From assembly GCA_964446965.1 (NCBI GenBank), contig CAYUQD010000001.1, positions 21,586 through 85,585 on the forward strand: a DNA stretch of 64,000 nt. The letters are read 5' to 3'. The notes beneath the pieces were generated by a model. The model ran no database searches, was not told the origin of the DNA, and was given only the letters and a program-made list of their open reading frames with translations. The stretch is from an uncultured Candidatus Saccharibacteria bacterium (lineage in GTDB: Bacteria; Patescibacteriota; Minisyncoccia; Phycocordibacterales; UBA9973). Both the position numbers and the translations under genes were made by a program. Shown piece after piece: positions 7,637 through 47,284 of the stretch (position 1 is the first letter of the stretch; every line of letters begins with the position of its first letter).

Positions 7637-7656
7637 AGCCCCACAAGGGCTTTTTT
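7637..7656 (+). terminator. intrinsic terminator (agccc-acaa-gggct + T-run)
   Basis: Hairpin plus TTTTTT immediately after the MgtC-like gene. Confidence 0.5.
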
Positions 7657-7671
7657 GTTATGATGCGGGAT

Positions 7672-9438
7672 ATGAACTATCGTACTGAATGGAATTTGGG
7701 GTTGCTGTATAAAAGTGAAAAGGACCCACAGATAGAAAAAGATATTATAACAATAGAGAAAGTGTGCCTTGCCTTTGAAAAGAAATATAAAGGTAAGGAT
7801 TTTCTGAGTTCGCCTAAGCGTCTGGCGCAGGCATTCACCGATAAAGAAACATTGACTGAAGAGATGAACGGCAATAAATGTTGGTGGTATTTTGCACTTC
7901 GAAATCGTCTCAATAGTGATGATAGTTATGCTGGCGCTATGGCAACAAAGATGGATCAAAGAATTAATAATGCAGCGAATAAAATAAAGTTTTTCTTTCT
8001 TGAAATATCAAAAATTTCTCCAAAAAACCAATCAATGTATCTTAATGATCCAGATCTATTTCCTTACAAATATGCATTGGAGCGAATGTTTAATTCTGCA
8101 AAATACAACCTTTCTGAAAAGGAAGAACAAATTATCTCGCTACTATCACAAACGAGCTATGATATGTGGGTAGATGGTCAACAAAGAGTTCTTACACAAG
8201 AAACAATTGAACATGCCCGTAAAACTATACCCTTATCAAAGGCAATGTCGATTTTGGGAGATGAGCCAAAAAAAACTCGACAGATATTACATAACAAAAT
8301 AAACAATGCCTTAAAACGCAACGCTTCGTTTGCAAGCGCAGAAATCAACGCAGTGTTTAACTACAAGAAAATACTCGATGAACGAAGGGGATATAAAAAA
8401 TGCTACAGCGAGACAGTATTGGGATACGAGAACGATGAAAAGACAGTCGAAGATCTCGTTGATGTTGTGACGAAATATTTCAGATTAAGTCACAGGTTCT
8501 ACAGCCTCCATTCCAAGTTATTGGGTAAAAAGAACATCACTATGGCAGATCGATCTGTAAAGATCGGCGAGATTAAAAAGAAATTTGATTTTGAAAGTTC
8601 TATCGATTTAGTCAAAAATGCGTTTACAAAAGTTGATAAAAAATATGCACAGTATGTCGATACTTATTTAGAAAATGGCCAAATTGATGTATATCCCAAG
8701 AAAGGTAAAGATAGTGGTGCGTTTTGTTGGGGGATAGATTTGTTGCCGACATATGTATTGCTCAATCATACAGACAATGTACGATCTGTTGAAACATTCG
8801 CACATGAAATGGGGCATGCTATACATACTGAGTTAAGTAAAAAACAACCTCCACGGTACAGACATTATTCTACTGCCACTGCTGAAGTAGCAAGTACTTT
8901 CTTTGAATTGGTAGCGGCTGATGATCTCGAAGCAGGGCTCTCCGATAAAGAGAAAATTGTATTACTTCACAACAAAACAATGGGAGATATTAGTACAATT
9001 TTCAGGCAAATTGCTTGTTTCAACTTTGAAAAAGAATTACATGAGAAAATTCGGACAGAAGGACAATTAGATCAAGGACAGATTGCGATACTTCTTCAAA
9101 AGCATTTACAGTCCTACACAGGCAAATCAATGGAAGTAACACAAGATGATGGGTATTTCTTTGTGACATGGTCGCACATTAGACGCTTCTTTTATGTGTA
9201 CTCGTATGCCTACGGCCAAATCATTAGTCGTGCCCTGTATGAAAAATGGAAAGCAGATCCATCATATGCCAAAAAAATTGAACAATTTCTCAGTGCCGGC
9301 CGTTCAATGTCACCAAAAGATATATTCAAATCCATCGGCATCACTACAAACGCGGCATTCTTTGAAGCAGGATTGAAGGGTATTGAAGCTGATATTGATA
9401 AGTTGGAAAAGTTGGCAAAAAAGCAAAAATTGATATAA
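7672..9438 (+). CDS. pepF: oligoendopeptidase F (M3B)
   Basis: HEMGH zinc motif and M3 length. Start placed at ATG 7672 rather than 7660 because TGtTATGAT (7656-7664) reads as an extended -10 with a transcription start ~7671. Confidence 0.75.
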   Translation: MNYRTEWNLGLLYKSEKDPQIEKDIITIEKVCLAFEKKYKGKDFLSSPKRLAQAFTDKETLTEEMNGNKCWWYFALRNRLNSDDSYAGAMATKMDQRINNAANKIKFFFLEISKISPKNQSMYLNDPDLFPYKYALERMFNSAKYNLSEKEEQIISLLSQTSYDMWVDGQQRVLTQETIEHARKTIPLSKAMSILGDEPKKTRQILHNKINNALKRNASFASAEINAVFNYKKILDERRGYKKCYSETVLGYENDEKTVEDLVDVVTKYFRLSHRFYSLHSKLLGKKNITMADRSVKIGEIKKKFDFESSIDLVKNAFTKVDKKYAQYVDTYLENGQIDVYPKKGKDSGAFCWGIDLLPTYVLLNHTDNVRSVETFAHEMGHAIHTELSKKQPPRYRHYSTATAEVASTFFELVAADDLEAGLSDKEKIVLLHNKTMGDISTIFRQIACFNFEKELHEKIRTEGQLDQGQIAILLQKHLQSYTGKSMEVTQDDGYFFVTWSHIRRFFYVYSYAYGQIISRALYEKWKADPSYAKKIEQFLSAGRSMSPKDIFKSIGITTNAAFFEAGLKGIEADIDKLEKLAKKQKLI

Positions 9439-9506
9439 CAATTGCAATTGTTGGTTTCTGTTGTATAGTCATAAAAAATCTTTTACCCATGCACAAGGAT
9501 AAGATA

Positions 9507-9605
9507 ATGCTTGCCTTATTGATGCTGTCGTGTGGTTCAACAATTTTGTCCGGATTGCTATATATTGTTTTTATAATACAAGTATGTAGAAAGGATACAT
9601 GTTGA
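9507..9605 (+). CDS. small hydrophobic peptide (32 aa, MLALLMLSCGSTILSGLLYIVFIIQVCRKDTC)
   Basis: Short ORF with an AAGGA-like element upstream, followed by a hairpin and T-run; below the size cutoff of the ORF track. Confidence 0.2.
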   Translation: MLALLMLSCGSTILSGLLYIVFIIQVCRKDTC

Positions 9606-9671
9606 ACTCACTGGAGCGGGCCATGAAATGGTCTGCTTTTTTTATTACCCATTTTTTGCTACAGTATCGCA

Positions 9672-11414
9672 ATGACATCTTCCGAAATCCGCAAGCGCTT
9701 TCTCGACTTTTTTGCTGCACGTGGCCATGCCGTACTGCCGTCGGCTTCACTTGTGCCCAAGAACGACCCTTCTGTACTATTCAACACTGCCGGTATGCAG
9801 CCGCTCGTGCCGTACCTCATGGGTGAGACACATCCACTCGGTACACGTCTCGCGAGCTGCCAGAAGTGTGTACGTACGGGAGATATCGAAGAAGTGGGCA
9901 ATCACAAAAATCTCACATTCTTTGAGATGCTCGGCAACTGGTCGCTCGGAGACTATTTCAAGGAGTATGCGATCAAGTGGAGCTACGAATTCCTCACGAG
10001 CAAAGATGAGGGACTCGGTCTCGATCCATCACGACTCTATGTGACCGTATTCGAAGGCGACGCAGATGCGCCACGCGATCTCGAAGCAGTCGAGATCTGG
10101 AAGCAATACATTCCCGAGCATCGCATCTATTTCCTCCCCAAGGCCAACAACTGGTGGAGTCCTGGCGACAATGGTCCATGTGGACCCGATACTGAGATGT
10201 TCTATGATGTGACCCCACACGGTCTCGGAGATATGACGCACGAGGAGTACGTGGCAGCAGATGACAAGGGCGAAGTCGTCGAGATCTGGAACGATGTGTT
10301 CATGGAGTATGAGAAGCGCGACGGCGCAGTGATAGGGAAGTTGTCTCAAAAAAATGTGGACACCGGATCAGGTCTCGAGCGTATCTCAATGATTGTGCAA
10401 GGCAAGAATAATGTCTATGAATCTGACTTCTTCTCAGAGGTAATGGAGTACATAAAAAATCATTCAACTAAAAATTACGATGAGCGCGCAGCGCGAATTG
10501 TCGCAGACCATATCAGAAGTTCATTATTTATGATTGGTGATGGTGTTTTACCTTCCAATAAAGATAGCGGTTATGTTGTTCGTCGATTAATTCGTCGTTC
10601 AATGATTCAATCAAATAAATTGGGTTTAAATAAGGAAGATATTACTGCAATATTGGGCATTTTTATTTCTATATATAGAACATCGTATGAAGAAGTTGGT
10701 AGTATTAACGTAGTCTCTTCGGTCTTGGATGAATTTGATAAATTTCAAAAAACTCTTGAGATTGGTCTCAAAGAGCTTGATAAGGGAACAGATCCGTTCT
10801 TATTGGCTACAAGTTATGGTTTTCCAATAGAGCTTACAGAAGAACTTTTAGGGGAAAAAGGTGGTAGTATCGATATGAAATTATTTGCTGAGCAAATGAA
10901 GTCTCACCAAGACGCATCTCGTGCTGGTGCTGAGCAGAAGTTCAAAGGTGGCCTTGCCAATACTTCTGAAATCACGACCAAGCTCCACACCGCACACCAT
11001 TTGCTATTGAAGGCGTTGCAAGAAGTCGTCAGTCCCGACATTCACCAAAAAGGTTCCAACATTACCGAAGAACGCCTCCGGCTCGACTTCAACTTTGACC
11101 GCAAGCTCACTGACGAAGAAAAGAAAGCTGTCGAAGATCTCGTCAATGAAAAGATTCGCGAAGATTTGATCGTCACCAAGCGCGAAATGCCCAAAGCAGA
11201 GGCAATGCAACTCGGTGCCGAGATGGAATTTGGGACGACGTATCCTGATATTGTGTCTGTCTATATGATTCATGACGCCAACGACAAGGTATTCTCCCAA
11301 GAATTTTGCGGAGGACCACACGTGTCACACACCGGCGTACTCGGTACGTTCAAGATTCAAAAAGAAGAAGCCTCATCAGCAGGTATTCGTCGGATCAAGG
11401 CAACACTGTCATAA
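9672..11414 (+). CDS. alaS: alanine--tRNA ligase, short form lacking the C-terminal C-Ala domain
   Basis: Class II catalytic core (FNTAGMQP, GNWS, WS..NGPCGP) and editing-domain motif CGGPHV; 580 aa versus the canonical ~870. Confidence 0.85.
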   Translation: MTSSEIRKRFLDFFAARGHAVLPSASLVPKNDPSVLFNTAGMQPLVPYLMGETHPLGTRLASCQKCVRTGDIEEVGNHKNLTFFEMLGNWSLGDYFKEYAIKWSYEFLTSKDEGLGLDPSRLYVTVFEGDADAPRDLEAVEIWKQYIPEHRIYFLPKANNWWSPGDNGPCGPDTEMFYDVTPHGLGDMTHEEYVAADDKGEVVEIWNDVFMEYEKRDGAVIGKLSQKNVDTGSGLERISMIVQGKNNVYESDFFSEVMEYIKNHSTKNYDERAARIVADHIRSSLFMIGDGVLPSNKDSGYVVRRLIRRSMIQSNKLGLNKEDITAILGIFISIYRTSYEEVGSINVVSSVLDEFDKFQKTLEIGLKELDKGTDPFLLATSYGFPIELTEELLGEKGGSIDMKLFAEQMKSHQDASRAGAEQKFKGGLANTSEITTKLHTAHHLLLKALQEVVSPDIHQKGSNITEERLRLDFNFDRKLTDEEKKAVEDLVNEKIREDLIVTKREMPKAEAMQLGAEMEFGTTYPDIVSVYMIHDANDKVFSQEFCGGPHVSHTGVLGTFKIQKEEASSAGIRRIKATLS

Positions 11415-18015: not shown

Positions 18016-18040
18016 AAGTCCCGACTGGGGTTTTTTTGTT
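18016..18040 (+). terminator. intrinsic terminator after rpsI (short hairpin + T7)
   Basis: cccgactgggg followed by TTTTTTT. Confidence 0.4.
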
Positions 18041-18066
18041 GCTTTTATGTATAGTTTTGATATAGT

Positions 18067-18338
18067 CGGAGAAGAATGTTCCTAGCGAACGGCTTGGGTC
18101 GTAAAGATTACCCACTCTTCCTAATTTTTTATTCGAGAGAGATTGGAATAAGCCTAAAGGGGGATAAACCCAGATTTGCAGCTAAGGCATAGTGATGTTA
18201 TGGCTTGAGCACCGCTCGCCTAACATGTAAAACACAAAGTAACGGCAACGTTCGCCGAAGCTCTTAGGGCAGCTTAAAAAAGCTTTTCCGGTAGTAAGAA
18301 CATTTTAAAAGACCTCTCTTTTGAGAGGGCTTTTTTTA
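18067..18338 (+). ncRNA. candidate ~270 nt structured RNA, or a terminator-ended leader/attenuator of grpE (identity unknown)
   Basis: No plus-strand ORF of 60 aa or more. Candidate promoter TTGCTT-16-TATAGT at 18039-18066. The 5' segment aagaatgttc (18073-18082) can pair with gaacattt (~18300-18308). Strong intrinsic terminator cctctc-tttt-gagagg + T7 at 18311-18338. Confidence 0.3.
18311..18338 (+). terminator. intrinsic terminator (cctctcttttgagagg + TTTTTTT)
   Basis: Perfect 6-bp stem, tetraloop, T7. Confidence 0.6.
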
Positions 18339-18366
18339 TTGCAAATTTTCAGTATAATAATGACCT

Positions 18367-18953: not shown

Positions 18954-18982
18954 TTGACTTTATATAGATAATATGGTATGAT
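18954..18982 (+). promoter_or_regulatory. strong promoter TTGACT-17-TGgTATGAT (extended -10)
   Basis: Near-identical copy at 22196-22224. Confidence 0.5.
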
Positions 18983-22823: not shown

Positions 22824-22842
22824 TAAAAACATTTCAGAATGA

Positions 22843-22888
22843 AGCTGTTAGTTAGAAATATTTATTATTTCCCTAACAGCTTTTTTTA
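22843..22888 (+). terminator. intrinsic terminator (agctgttag...ctaacagct + T7)
   Basis: 9-bp stem and T-run. Confidence 0.45.
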
Positions 22889-22914
22889 TTTCCAATTTGT
22901 GCTATAGTTTCGCT

Positions 22915-22992
22915 ATGAACAAGAAACGAAAAGTTGCTGCAAAAAAGAAGCGCAAGAAGGAAGGCAAGACCGTCAACCTCCGACACCGATAA
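22915..22992 (+). CDS. tiny Lys/Arg-rich peptide (25 aa, MNKKRKVAAKKKRKKEGKTVNLRHR)
   Basis: Short ORF flanked by its own terminators (22843-22888 upstream, 23008-23038 downstream); composition resembles very small ribosomal proteins. Confidence 0.25.
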   Translation: MNKKRKVAAKKKRKKEGKTVNLRHR

Positions 22993-23473: not shown

Positions 23474-23500
23474 AAAGCCACCCTGAAGGTGGTTTTTTTA
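23474..23500 (+). terminator. intrinsic terminator (ccaccctgaaggtgg + T7)
   Basis: Hairpin plus T-run. Confidence 0.55.
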
Positions 23501-23526
23501 TGGGTAATTTGTGATAAAGTTAGGAT

Positions 23527-25016: not shown

Positions 25017-25376
25017 ATGAAAAAAATAATTGCACTTGTGATCGTCAGTATATCAGTATGCGCATCATTCATGACCGCAAACTACTTTGTCAATCTCACA
25101 GCTCGCGACTATCAAGGCTGGTCAGAGTTTGATCACGCTAACGGCTATCTATTTGTAAAAATGATACTAGCTACTGTAGTATGGGGCGGAATTGTTTCAC
25201 TAATCTTTTTCTTAATAAAAAAAGAGTCAAAGAAAGATGAAGATGAAACACTCATTGAAAGCATATTTGATGATATGCACCTGTGGGCGATTAGTAGCTT
25301 TGGCTTAGTAGGTGTTGTGCTTATTCCTTTATTGTTATGGGTAAATGACGACATTACGAAATGGATCATTAGTTGA
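25017..25376 (+). CDS. hypothetical membrane protein
   Basis: Three hydrophobic helices. Confidence 0.4.
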   Translation: MKKIIALVIVSISVCASFMTANYFVNLTARDYQGWSEFDHANGYLFVKMILATVVWGGIVSLIFFLIKKESKKDEDETLIESIFDDMHLWAISSFGLVGVVLIPLLLWVNDDITKWIIS

Positions 25377-25397
25377 ATTAATTAAATTGGCACTCAA

Positions 25398-25432
25398 AAG
25401 CTTCTCGATTAGAGAAGCTTTTTTTATTGCCC
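25398..25432 (+). promoter_or_regulatory. terminator hairpin + GCTTTTTTTATTGCCC element upstream of lysS
   Basis: Same 16-nt element upstream of alaS (9635-9650) and aspS (45896-45911). Confidence 0.4.
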
Positions 25433-25455
25433 AGATTTGCTAGAATACAGTCACT

Positions 25456-26919
25456 ATGGCATCCATACCCGAACTGCGAGACGAACGACTGAAAAAGAAG
25501 GCTATGCTTGAGGAGAAAGGCATTAATCCCTATCCTGCCACTACCAAGCGTACCGATGCTATCGATGTATTCAAAGATCGCTTTTCGTTGTACGAAGCAG
25601 GTAAGGACGCGATCACACTCGCAGGACGCATCATGAGCAAACGTGGACAAGGTGGGCTCGCATTCGCAGACATATTTGACGGTTCTGCAGGAGGAACGAT
25701 GCAGCTGTTCCTCAAATCTGATGAAATGGATGCAGATGCATATGCGCTCTGGAACGAAACGACTGACGTCGGCGACTTCGTCGAGGCGACAGGTATTGCG
25801 TATACGACCAAGCGTGGAGAGCAAGCACTCTTTGTGAGTGGATGGAACATGCTCGCCAAGTCTCTCCTCCCATTGCCTGAAAAGTGGCATGGTCTCACTG
25901 ATGATGACGAACGATACCGCAAGCGATATCTCGATATCCTCACCAACCCTGAACTCCGTGCAATGTTCGAACAGAAGGCAAAGTTCTGGGAAGTGACGCG
26001 CAACTTCATGAAAGACGCAGGGTTCATGGAGGTAGAGACTCCAACCCTCGAGGTGACGACAGGGGGAGCCGAAGCCAATCCGTTCAAAACCATGCACAAG
26101 GACTTTGCGATGGATGTATTCATGCGTATATCGGTCGGAGAACTCTGGCAAAAGCGCCTGATGGCTGCCGGATTTCCCAAGACATTTGAGATAGGGCGTG
26201 TGTACCGCAACGAAGGAAGTAGTCCCGATCACCTCCAAGAATTTACCAACATGGAGTTCTATTGGGCATATGCTGACTATGAAATGGGGATGAAGCTCGT
26301 CGAGCAGTTGTACAAAAAGATCGCACTCGAAGTCTTTGGGACGACAACATTCACGACACGTGGACACACCTTTGATCTCAACCAGCCATGGGGTCGTATC
26401 GACTATGTCAATGAGATCGAGAAGCAAACAGGTATCAATGTCCTCGATGCAACAGAAGGCGAGATGACGGCAAAGCTCGATGAACTCGGCGTGAAGTATG
26501 TCGGCACCAACAAAGAGCGCCTCACTGATACCCTCTGGAAATACTGCCGCAAATCTATCGCAGGTCCAGCATTTCTCATTCGCGTGCCCAAGCTCGTCTC
26601 TCCATTGGCAAAAGCTGCGTCAGACGATCCTCGAGTCACTGAGCGATTTCAAGTATTGCTCGCAGGGAGTGAGGTAGGGAACGGATTTAGTGAACTCAAT
26701 GATCCTGTGGATCAGCGTGCACGCTTTGACCTCCAGCAAGCCATGATCGAGCGCGGAGATGACGAAGCGATGATGCCTGAATGGGAGTTCGTCGACATGC
26801 TCGAGCATGGGATGCCGCCGACCTGCGGATTTGGATTTGGTGAGCGACTATTCGCATTCCTCGTCGACAAACCATTGCGCGAGACGCAATTGTTCCCGTT
26901 GTTGAAGCCGAGAGAGTAA
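25456..26919 (+). CDS. lysS: lysine--tRNA ligase (class II)
   Basis: Class II motifs FMEVETP, YRNEG, GLGIDR-like C-terminus (GFGFGERL). Confidence 0.9.
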   Translation: MASIPELRDERLKKKAMLEEKGINPYPATTKRTDAIDVFKDRFSLYEAGKDAITLAGRIMSKRGQGGLAFADIFDGSAGGTMQLFLKSDEMDADAYALWNETTDVGDFVEATGIAYTTKRGEQALFVSGWNMLAKSLLPLPEKWHGLTDDDERYRKRYLDILTNPELRAMFEQKAKFWEVTRNFMKDAGFMEVETPTLEVTTGGAEANPFKTMHKDFAMDVFMRISVGELWQKRLMAAGFPKTFEIGRVYRNEGSSPDHLQEFTNMEFYWAYADYEMGMKLVEQLYKKIALEVFGTTTFTTRGHTFDLNQPWGRIDYVNEIEKQTGINVLDATEGEMTAKLDELGVKYVGTNKERLTDTLWKYCRKSIAGPAFLIRVPKLVSPLAKAASDDPRVTERFQVLLAGSEVGNGFSELNDPVDQRARFDLQQAMIERGDDEAMMPEWEFVDMLEHGMPPTCGFGFGERLFAFLVDKPLRETQLFPLLKPRE

Positions 26920-45446: not shown

Positions 45447-45857
45447 ATGAAAAAGAACTATTTTCATGATCAATCAGATCATTGTGGTGTAGATGTGATT
45501 GTTACCAATAACACCAACATCACTACAACAGCGAACTCTCACAATGAGCCTTATTCACCTATTAATGCTCAACTACCTTCTGACTGTGGTAGTTATGGTC
45601 ATGCAGGTAATACTGCCACCCAGTCAATAACAATCTCTGCTGGGGATAATGCTACTAAAACTCCTACAACAAGTTCTGTAGCTACATTTCAGACGTTAAC
45701 CTATGGAGCACCTCAGAACGATGATGCCCCTTCTGGTAAGGAGCAGAAACTGGAGCGAGATTGGCCATTTATTTTGAGAGAAGTGTGGGGATTTCCGGTT
45801 ACCAAAGCAATCTTGCTTATAGCAGTGATAATCATAGCTCTGCGGTTATTCTTTTAA
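45447..45857 (+). CDS. hypothetical tail-anchored protein (C-terminal TM)
   Basis: Ser/Thr/Asn-rich N-terminus, C-terminal AILLIAVIIIALRLFF. Confidence 0.35.
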   Translation: MKKNYFHDQSDHCGVDVIVTNNTNITTTANSHNEPYSPINAQLPSDCGSYGHAGNTATQSITISAGDNATKTPTTSSVATFQTLTYGAPQNDDAPSGKEQKLERDWPFILREVWGFPVTKAILLIAVIIIALRLFF

Positions 45858-45934
45858 ACAAATGGGTTCGTATAAAGCACGGGATCAACTCCTGGGCTTT
45901 TTTTATTGCCCGATATATGGCACAATGCAAACCT

Positions 45935-47284
45935 ATGAGCAGCACTATGGAACGAACCTATATTGGAGACTTGGGGGGCAAGGCAGGCGAGACAGTACTC
46001 ATCAAGGGGTGGATAGACGTCCGTCGCGACCAGGGCAAAATGGTCTTTTTTGACTTCAGAGATATGACGGGCACGATCCAAGGTGTCGTCCTTCCAATGC
46101 GTCCAGACGTCATTGAGATCGCAAAGACATGTCGCCCAGAGACCGTTGTCGCAATCCAAGGTATCGTGAACAAGCGCCCAGAACGTAACATCCAAGCCGA
46201 CAAGCAAAATGGTGATATCGAACTTGAAGTGACAAATATCGATATACTTAGTCCGGCCCAAGATCTACCGTTTGACTTTAACGCTGAACCAAACCTTGAT
46301 ACATTACTTGATTACCGACCATACACACTACGCATGCCACGCGAGCGGGCAATATTTAAAGTCCAGCATAATATCCTCAAAGCCTTTCGAGAGTACCTCA
46401 CGAGTGAGAAGTTTACTGAATTCAGAGCACCTGCTATTACAGGAGGAGATGCAGAGGGCGGTACTGAAGTATTTAAGTTCGATTATTTCTATGGAAAAAT
46501 GGGGTATCTTGCAACAAGTCCGCAACTATACAAGCAAATGATGGTTGGTGTATTCGAGCGTGTATTTACGATTGCAAACGTCTTTCGTGCCGAAAAGCAT
46601 GCAACTGCTCGCCACTTGAACGAATATACGTCTCTCGACCTAGAAATGGGGTTTATCGACGGACCAGAAGATGTTATGAAGCTTGAAACAAGACTTTTGC
46701 GCTATATTTCTGAACACCTTCAAAAAACATGCGCGAAGGAATTTGAAGTTCTTGGTGCAACATTCCCACTTATCCCAGATAGCGATATGTTCCCAAGTAT
46801 GAAGCTCGCAGACGCGCAAGCGCTCATCACCAAAGAAACTGGCGTGGACTGCACACAGGAACCAGATCTTGATCCAGAACATGAACGCTGGCTCTGTGAG
46901 TATGCAAAGAAGGAACTGGGGTCTGATTTCATTTTCATTACGAACTACCCTCGGACAAAGCGGCCATTCTATGCAATGGATGATGAAAATAATGAGGGAC
47001 GAACTAAGTGTTACGATCTTTTATTCCGCGGTCTTGAACTCATATCAGGTAACCAGCGAGAACATCGTTACGAAAAACTCGTCGAAAAGATGAAATGGAA
47101 AGGTCTTGATCCTGAAAAGTTTTCATTCTATCTTCAAGCGTTCAAATATGGTCTTCCGCCACATGGTGGACTCGGTATGGGGCTCGAACGTCTTACTGCA
47201 CGATTTTTGGGTCTCTCAAACATTAAAGAGGCTACACTTTTCCCGCGCGATATCAACCGTATTGATAAATTACTCTCTGAGTAA
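45935..47284 (+). CDS. aspS: aspartate--tRNA ligase, archaeal/eukaryotic type (type 2); AsnRS not excluded
   Basis: OB-fold N-terminus, motif 2 FRAEKHATARHLNEYTSLDLEMGF, motif 3 PPHGGLGMGLERL; ~450 aa; start chosen downstream of the GCTTTTTTTATTGCCC element. Confidence 0.65.
   Translation: MSSTMERTYIGDLGGKAGETVLIKGWIDVRRDQGKMVFFDFRDMTGTIQGVVLPMRPDVIEIAKTCRPETVVAIQGIVNKRPERNIQADKQNGDIELEVTNIDILSPAQDLPFDFNAEPNLDTLLDYRPYTLRMPRERAIFKVQHNILKAFREYLTSEKFTEFRAPAITGGDAEGGTEVFKFDYFYGKMGYLATSPQLYKQMMVGVFERVFTIANVFRAEKHATARHLNEYTSLDLEMGFIDGPEDVMKLETRLLRYISEHLQKTCAKEFEVLGATFPLIPDSDMFPSMKLADAQALITKETGVDCTQEPDLDPEHERWLCEYAKKELGSDFIFITNYPRTKRPFYAMDDENNEGRTKCYDLLFRGLELISGNQREHRYEKLVEKMKWKGLDPEKFSFYLQAFKYGLPPHGGLGMGLERLTARFLGLSNIKEATLFPRDINRIDKLLSE

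Follow-up and report, generated by a model that had tools for sequence, protein, structure and literature searches.

An identical 16-mer upstream of alaS, lysS, and aspS in a CPR genome is very probably a terminator tail overlapping an apparently leaderless promoter

The 16-mer GCTTTTTTTATTRCCC, which precedes alaS, lysS, and aspS in the 64,000-nucleotide stretch of DNA analyzed here (the window), is very probably the T-rich tail of an upstream terminator overlapping the extended -10, apparently leaderless promoter of the next gene: an ordinary arrangement rather than a synthetase-specific switch. Two ordinary signals would overlap because the genome is compact. GC would close the stem of the upstream unit's Rho-independent terminator on its 3′ side, with T7 and ATT as the U-tract tail; the same T-run sits at the place expected for the next promoter's -35 hexamer, 15 to 16 nt before the -10 box. 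In ATT-RCCC, which would form the upstream half of the spacer, an AT-tract gives way to a GC-leaning patch; after RCCC come a further AT-tract, TGn, and the -10 box (TAnnnT). With the ATG 6 to 9 nt past the box, the mRNA would be leaderless or would have a leader of about 3 nt at most. This layout, the way it is conserved, and its presence before other genes are observed results; the terminator and leaderless promoter calls are consensus-based predictions, and so are termination at these hairpins and the start sites. The case illustrates how superimposed generic signals, here two, can produce a 16-mer that stands out statistically, so annotating the motif as a regulator of synthetases would be unwarranted. 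The motif had been correctly seen but over-interpreted in the original prediction, which was made from the letters of the window: it exemplifies familiar types of signal in a lineage that has received little study.

We tabulated the 16-mer in the 64-kb window and in related loci. In the window, exact copies, all on the plus strand, lie upstream of three of the five synthetase genes and of nothing else, and copies with two mismatches are present at 18329 (before grpE) and at 22879 (before a 25-codon ORF). These five matches compare with 0.05 expected from shuffles, a null that takes no account of terminator or promoter structure. The genes downstream were identified by Pfam as those for AlaRS (9672-11414), LysRS (25456-26919), AspRS, and GrpE. 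From the end of the 16-mer to the ATG there are 21 nt in alaS, 23 nt in lysS, and 23 nt in aspS (counted from ATG 45935). The descriptive claims of the original prediction were thus borne out: the 16-mer precedes these three genes at a distance of about 20 to 25 nt, a hairpin with a stable fold precedes each copy, and a similar motif precedes grpE. The start of aspS is ambiguous, with in-frame ATGs at 45917, 45935 (MSSTMERT...), and 45947 (window 45917-45949); 45947 fits the 445-aa homologues, and 45935 fits the -10 spacing of a leaderless start.

The same order of elements was found at six sites, those of alaS, lysS, aspS, grpE, the 25-codon ORF, and dnaJ (see the table): hairpin, T7, ATT, N4, T-rich tract, TGn, -10 hexamer, 6 to 9 nt, and ATG. 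The exceptions are dnaJ, which has ATG for ATT, and grpE, which has CAG for TGn. N4 reads ACCC, GCCC, GCCC, GCAA, TCCA, and GGTA, respectively. The hairpins at the five motif sites and at dnaJ have a dG of -13 to -19 kcal/mol (z -2.6 to -7.3) and are followed by at least six T. Among the -10 boxes, that of grpE is a perfect TATAAT without TG, those of lysS, dnaJ, and the small ORF have TGn, and that of aspS is TGG-CACAAT. The T-run ends 15 to 16 nt before the hexamer, which places it at the position of the -35 hexamer. Judging only by this register, RNA polymerase may use the T-run as a surrogate for that hexamer, although it matches TTGACA poorly: no TTGACA-like -35 was found at 16 to 18 nt at the motif sites, where TTTTTT or CTTTTT is present instead, and only TT agrees with the clade profile at this position (T.76/.53). 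TTGCCC was also considered as a -35 hexamer and rejected: there is no -10 at 16 to 19 nt from it that is compatible with the conserved protein N-termini.

Putative features at the six sites and in the slot before alaS
Feature	Positions	Strand	Details
Sigma-70-type promoter TTGCAA-16-TATAGT	9442..9469	+	Promoter scan 9/12; directly after the peptidase M3 stop
Micro-ORF, MLALLMLSCGSTILSGLLYIVFIIQVCRK	9489..9605	+	38 aa (ATG 9489) or 32 aa (ATG 9507); one hydrophobic helix
Intrinsic terminator of the slot transcript	9613..9643	+	12-bp hairpin + T7; terminator scan; fold -15.4 kcal/mol, z -2.8
alaS 16-mer	9635..9650	+	Final GC of the stem, T7 where a -35 hexamer is expected, ATT, ACCC mid-spacer
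alaS extended -10 TGC-TACAGT	9657..9665	+	6 nt before ATG 9672; implies leaderless mRNA
grpE site: hairpin, T7 (18331-18337), ATTGCAA, ATTTTCAG, TATAAT (18353-18358)	18307..18358	+	ATG 18367
Site of the 25-codon basic ORF (22915-22992): hairpin, T7, ATTTCCA, TGC-TATAGT	22841..22908	+	
dnaJ site: hairpin, T7 (23493-23499), ATGGGTA, TGA-TAAAGT (23512-23520)	23478..23520	+	ATG 23527
Intrinsic terminator of the 119-aa ORF 25017-25376	25396..25425	+	11-bp hairpin + T7; -19.4 kcal/mol, z -6
lysS 16-mer (25417-25432), AT-tract, extended -10 TGC-TAGAAT (25438-25446)	25417..25446	+	ATG 25456
Intrinsic terminator of the 136-aa ORF 45447-45857	45874..45904	+	Hairpin + T7; fold, T-run listing
aspS 16-mer (45896-45911) and extended -10 TGG-CACAAT (45918-45926)	45896..45926	+	ATG 45935, 8 nt past the box

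The first 12 bases of the 16-mer (GC-T7-ATT) are the generic intrinsic-terminator tail of this genome. ATT follows 14 of the 37 hairpin and T-run sites in the window, and half of the ten T7ATT terminators (19574, 29032, 36983, and, on the minus strand, 47898 and 5634) stand between convergent genes, where no gene follows on the same strand and there is no promoter. C is the second base after ATT (T7-ATT-N-C) in nine of these ten terminators (9637, 18331, 22881, 25419, 29032, 36983, 45898, and, on the minus strand, 47898 and 5634), four of which are at convergent junctions without a promoter; this extends the consensus of the terminator tail. Since the tail is generic and C is usual after ATT, only the last two to three bases of the 16-mer are particular to the synthetases. 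The sites share with Rho-independent terminators a GC-closed hairpin, T7, and more T-rich bases, positioned after co-directional stop codons; their stems vary among relatives while the hairpin is kept, and the hairpin and T-run decay where there is no co-directional gene upstream (L082). The terminators lie 3′ of co-directional units, and their stem sequence is replaced, with the hairpin kept, in L081, L084, L086, L089, L159, and L161. They differ from free-standing terminators in that the U-tract overlaps the next promoter in a fixed register, 15 to 16 nt ahead of its -10. Terminator and promoter overlap in another register upstream of the peptidase M3 gene (probable start ATG 7672; window 7637-7680), where the T-run directly abuts TGT-TATGAT; the T-run also abuts the -10 before aspS in L156.

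Gene neighborhood accounts for which synthetase genes carry the module. alaS, lysS, and aspS would have it because they stand alone, each with a co-directional upstream neighbor that needs a terminator. cysS is without it because it is operon-internal, 9 nt behind corA, and trpS has no T-run because its upstream neighbor is divergent, hence no terminator; the predicted promoter of trpS is a leaderless TGA-TACTAT. Thus, cysS and trpS do lack the motif, as originally stated, but for reasons of neighborhood. The claim of a distinctive synthetase module did not hold up, given that the same architecture precedes grpE, dnaJ, and the small basic ORF and that T7ATT is also found at convergent gene ends; the motif is largely the generic terminator/-35 fusion that the original prediction had named as its own refutation. 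That prediction offered a promoter class or a common regulatory site as explanations: the former comes close to the truth, whereas a module specific to synthetases is unsupported. All three synthetase genes lack a Shine-Dalgarno sequence, as it had said, but this holds genome-wide and is not special to them: Shine-Dalgarno-like 4-mers precede about 4 of 63 genes in the window, compared with an 11% background.

An extended -10 (TGnTAnnnT) is located 4 to 10 nt before the ATG in 198 of 1,218 genes called in CPR loci, and before many window genes as well; a box this near to the ATG implies leaderless mRNAs. The arrangement matches the leaderless pattern termed "group C" by GeneMarkS-2, described in Actinobacteria and Deinococcus-Thermus (PMC6028130). 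Those genomes share with the window a Pribnow-type box 6 to 9 nt ahead of the first gene's start codon and no Shine-Dalgarno sequence; the window lineage, however, is CPR/Paceibacteria, as its AlaRS relatives carry the names Paceibacterota, Pacebacteria, or Nomurabacteria in their sources. Our literature search found no work treating leaderless mRNAs together with Parcubacteria, and none of the passages it returned on Patescibacteria or CPR takes up leaderless mRNAs in these groups. What the present analysis adds is an in silico record of a CPR lineage without Shine-Dalgarno sequences, with extended -10 boxes directly before start codons and with terminator U-tracts that appear to serve a second time, at a fixed distance, as the upstream portion of the promoter that follows. 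Such a gene-start grammar helps to place start codons and to delimit transcription units when CPR genomes are annotated.

The spacer of these promoters is structured. In a profile of 133 non-redundant extended -10 promoters from CPR loci, with coordinates counted from the T of TGn, positions -20 to -18 (the -35 position) are T-rich, -14 to -11 are AT-rich, -9/-8 are GC-enriched, and -5 to -2 are T-rich; T-runs end preferentially 12 to 13 nt before TG. The CC of the synthetase RCCC sits on -9/-8, that is, on a generic, mildly GC-rich mid-spacer feature. The profile matches the four-region spacer described across bacteria, which consists of an AT-tract, slight GC enrichment, an AT-tract, and an Ex element, and it also matches the C with which the UP region ends on its 3′ side (PMC12641261). 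The window sites share with these extended -10 sigma-70 promoters TGnTAnnnT, the AT-tract, the GC-leaning patch, the second AT-tract, and the Ex element, as well as C just 5′ of the -35 position; they differ in having a plain T-run (TTTTTT) at -35, not a TTGACA-like hexamer. Most housekeeping genes in the window have predicted leaderless extended -10 promoters. A second promoter type, the canonical TTGACN-16/17-TATGAT/TATAAT/TATACT, is seen at 18954, 20112, 22196, 23029, and 24955, where it precedes dnaK and small hypothetical, often hydrophobic genes; where visible, the leaders there are long and free of Shine-Dalgarno sequences.

We compared the surroundings of alaS, lysS, aspS, and grpE in relatives (designated by L-numbers); the contig search with AlaRS retrieved relatives at up to 72% identity among the matches listed. 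Before alaS, T7-[A/C]TT-N4-ATTTTTTGCTA.AGT is kept in seven genomes, down to 51% AlaRS identity, and TGC-TA.AGT is present in all seven, whereas the stems are unrelated: in L081, L089, L159, and L161, the stem is wholly different and the hairpin is kept. N4 at this position reads ACCC, ACCT, ACCC, AGCC, GCCC, AGTG, and GTTC, with ACTC in L161. The exact 16-mer is found before alaS of L131 (52% AlaRS identity); in L001 (72% identity), alaS lies 9 nt behind a peptidase gene and has no module. For lysS, the module is identical in L084 behind a different terminator stem. In L082, the gene upstream of lysS is divergent and the hairpin is gone (z -0.5), leaving TTTTGTT-ATTGCTC with the promoter kept; L089 and L157 have different lysS promoters. 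The aspS site of L086 reads T7-CTTACCT-...-TAGAAT-9 nt-ATG, and the module of aspS is replaced in L154, L156, and L162. The grpE architecture is common to ten genomes (the window, L081, L084, L089, L090, L091, L157, L149, L092, and L001), and its N4 is variable (GCAA, CCTG, CCCA, GCGG, CGCA, and others). The block from T-run to ATG is thus kept across relatives while the hairpin stems change, and its retention at alaS, lysS, aspS, and grpE argues that the module is a terminator-promoter junction conserved at several housekeeping genes. Only RCCC sets the three synthetases apart, and because it changes among their orthologues it is not a stable synthetase signature.

Even so, the purely generic reading does not fully explain why RCCC is shared exactly by three synthetase genes or why synthetase promoters are rich in C. 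An alternative is that synthetase promoters share in RCCC (about -24 to -21 relative to the start site) a functional element, either an operator for a common regulator or a spacer signature that would coordinate growth-linked expression; in leaderless mRNAs it would stand in for 5′-UTR devices. We consider this unlikely. Under a position-specific promoter null, [R]CCC common to 3 of 6 to 10 sites has a P of ~0.002 to 0.01, and across genomes RCYY is present in 9 of 12 synthetase modules versus none of 14 modules of grpE, dnaJ, and other genes. Among 157 non-redundant leaderless promoters, the C-rich element occurs in 16 of 34 that belong to synthetases (alaS, trpS, lysS/aspS, and gltX) and in 11 of 123 others (Fisher 2e-6), but the motif definition was post hoc, derived from the window, and orthologous promoters are not independent observations. 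The C fraction at -12 to -6 from the T of TGn is 0.31 in synthetase promoters versus 0.15 in other leaderless promoters, with no G enrichment (family-level P 0.005), and the excess persists without alaS and without the window promoters (0.33 versus 0.15, P 3e-4); this contrast is confounded because the promoters of the large non-synthetase families lie within upstream coding sequence and lack a -35/spacer structure, and stand-alone grpE promoters likewise have S at -9 and C at -8. The exact 16-mer before the distant alaS of L131 speaks for the element. Against it, RCCC drifts or vanishes in close orthologues (ACCT, AGCC, ACTC, AGTG, and GTTC before alaS and GCTC before lysS), and the whole module is replaced before lysS in two relatives and before aspS in three. 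Moreover, RCCC amounts to three or four low-information bases in variable register, with no conserved palindrome or repeat.

A wider form of the same idea, in which the synthetase genes of Paceibacteria (alaS, trpS, lysS, aspS, and gltX) share a strand-specific C-rich spacer patch at about -27 to -21 as a common control point, is in our view a slim prospect. If true, the patch would control leaderless synthetase mRNAs that cannot use 5′-UTR devices such as T-boxes, and RCCC of the window would be its local form. Pairing of RCCC with bases 5′ of the hairpin was predicted for lysS and aspS and dropped, as it was predicted neither for alaS nor for the relatives. A palindromic operator at the start of alaS was likewise rejected: TTGC-N9-GCAA is present in the window only and is missing from L081. 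Putney and Schimmel reportedly found in 1981 that E. coli AlaRS binds a palindrome at its own promoter and thereby regulates its own transcription. The window alaS resembles that case in the unusually good conservation of its promoter block; however, no conserved palindrome was found there, and the window AlaRS (9672-11414) is a 580-aa short form. This protein has tRNA_SAD at its end (the Pfam domain ends at residue 575), and its length and this domain end suggest that it has no C-terminal extension. The 580-aa length is general among the CPR matches, and some loci titled DPANN archaea, Clostridia, or Spirochaetes match AlaRS at ~50% identity over residues 1-579/580.

The region between the peptidase M3 gene and alaS is a slot that starts with a conserved promoter and ends in a terminator, with contents that vary among the window, L081, L159, and L161. 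The promoter TTGCAA-16-TATAGT occupies the same place in the three relatives and is predicted to drive a short slot transcript that holds a micro-ORF. The original prediction described the latter as a 32-codon ORF (9507-9605) with AAGGA upstream. The ORF exists, and AAGGA is present at 9495-9499; however, the ORF can be extended to ATG 9489, and AAGGA carries no weight because Shine-Dalgarno sequences are not used genome-wide. A phmmer search against 1.84 billion proteins returned one match, to repeated stretches of a 522-aa protein, which we read as compositional. The slot ORFs are 32/38 aa long in the window, 59 in L081, 37 in L159, and 155 in L161, each with a hydrophobic segment (N-terminal in L161). 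Pairwise comparison found no similarity among the micro-ORF, the 59-aa L081 peptide, and the 37-aa L159 peptide. Hydrophobic ORFs arise easily from T-rich DNA. At best, the micro-ORF encodes an orphan, fast-evolving small membrane peptide or is a decaying remnant of a longer slot gene.

A promoter, a transcript of ~170 nt with a short ORF, a terminator, and a synthetase gene in succession resemble the layout of a leader peptide or T-box system, and the micro-ORF, hairpin, and T-run might accordingly be taken as an attenuator or riboswitch-like leader, with transcription from 9442 entering alaS only when the terminator is overridden. This reading is largely refuted, and we regard it as highly improbable. 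The micro-ORF is not a leader peptide because it contains 1 Ala in 32 residues, is not conserved, and precedes a gene with its own promoter: alaS has a conserved promoter 3′ of the terminator. Neither the transcript sequence nor the peptides are conserved among the window, L081, L159, and L161. L089 and L001 both lack the slot, and whether the alaS promoter is retained there does not depend on it; with unrelated peptides elsewhere, this removes the micro-ORF from alaS control.

The statement that the upstream region is not a T-box was confirmed. In the whole window and in selected regions, no Rfam family, T-box (RF00230) included, matched at the gathering score or even at E≤1, and no T-box core sequence was found near any of the synthetase genes. 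The window sites share with T-box leaders a hairpin and T-run ~25 nt before a synthetase ATG; they differ in having no Stem I, specifier, T-box sequence, or antiterminator, and in that their hairpins would terminate separate upstream genes. The one observation among relatives that could favor an attenuator is a reduced T-box-like leader before aspS in L162 (2787-2937) and L154 (9776-9940), both with ~80% AspRS identity. These leaders score 32.8 and 25.9 bits, respectively, far below the 93 bits that Rfam sets as its gathering score, and are shortened in the Stem I region; they have a perfect UAGGGUGGCACCGCG, a short specifier-like hairpin, and a terminator, and the specifier-like loop keeps GAC-A (an Asp codon) across compensatory stem changes. 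A literature search linking T-boxes (T-box riboswitches) with CPR or Patescibacteria returned nothing, and the two leaders may merit a separate look.

Finally, it is scarcely credible that a dispersed repeat (REP/MITE-like) ends in the 16-mer or that recent duplication or gene conversion among the three upstream regions produced it: three exact copies in 64 kb do exceed the shuffled expectation, but similarity ends at the 16-mer, with different stems upstream and a different spacer and -10 downstream at each site, and in other genomes each gene keeps its own orthologous block, which argues against a recent spread.

Upstream of grpE, ~290 nt (18040-18337) between rpsI and grpE contain no ORF of at least 100 aa and have their own promoter-like TTGCTT-16-TATAGT and terminator. 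In relatives, the same slot holds unrelated ORFs of 153 aa (L081) and 155 aa (L157); a decayed copy of either protein was considered, and no remnant of them and no Rfam match was found in this segment of the window, which may encode a small RNA or be what is left of a gene. The 25-codon ORF at 22915-22992 encodes a very basic peptide, MNKKRKVAAKKKRKKEGKTVNLRHR, from its own predicted terminator-coupled leaderless promoter, and a similar C-terminus (...KDGKTVSLRHR) is encoded ahead of dnaJ in L084.
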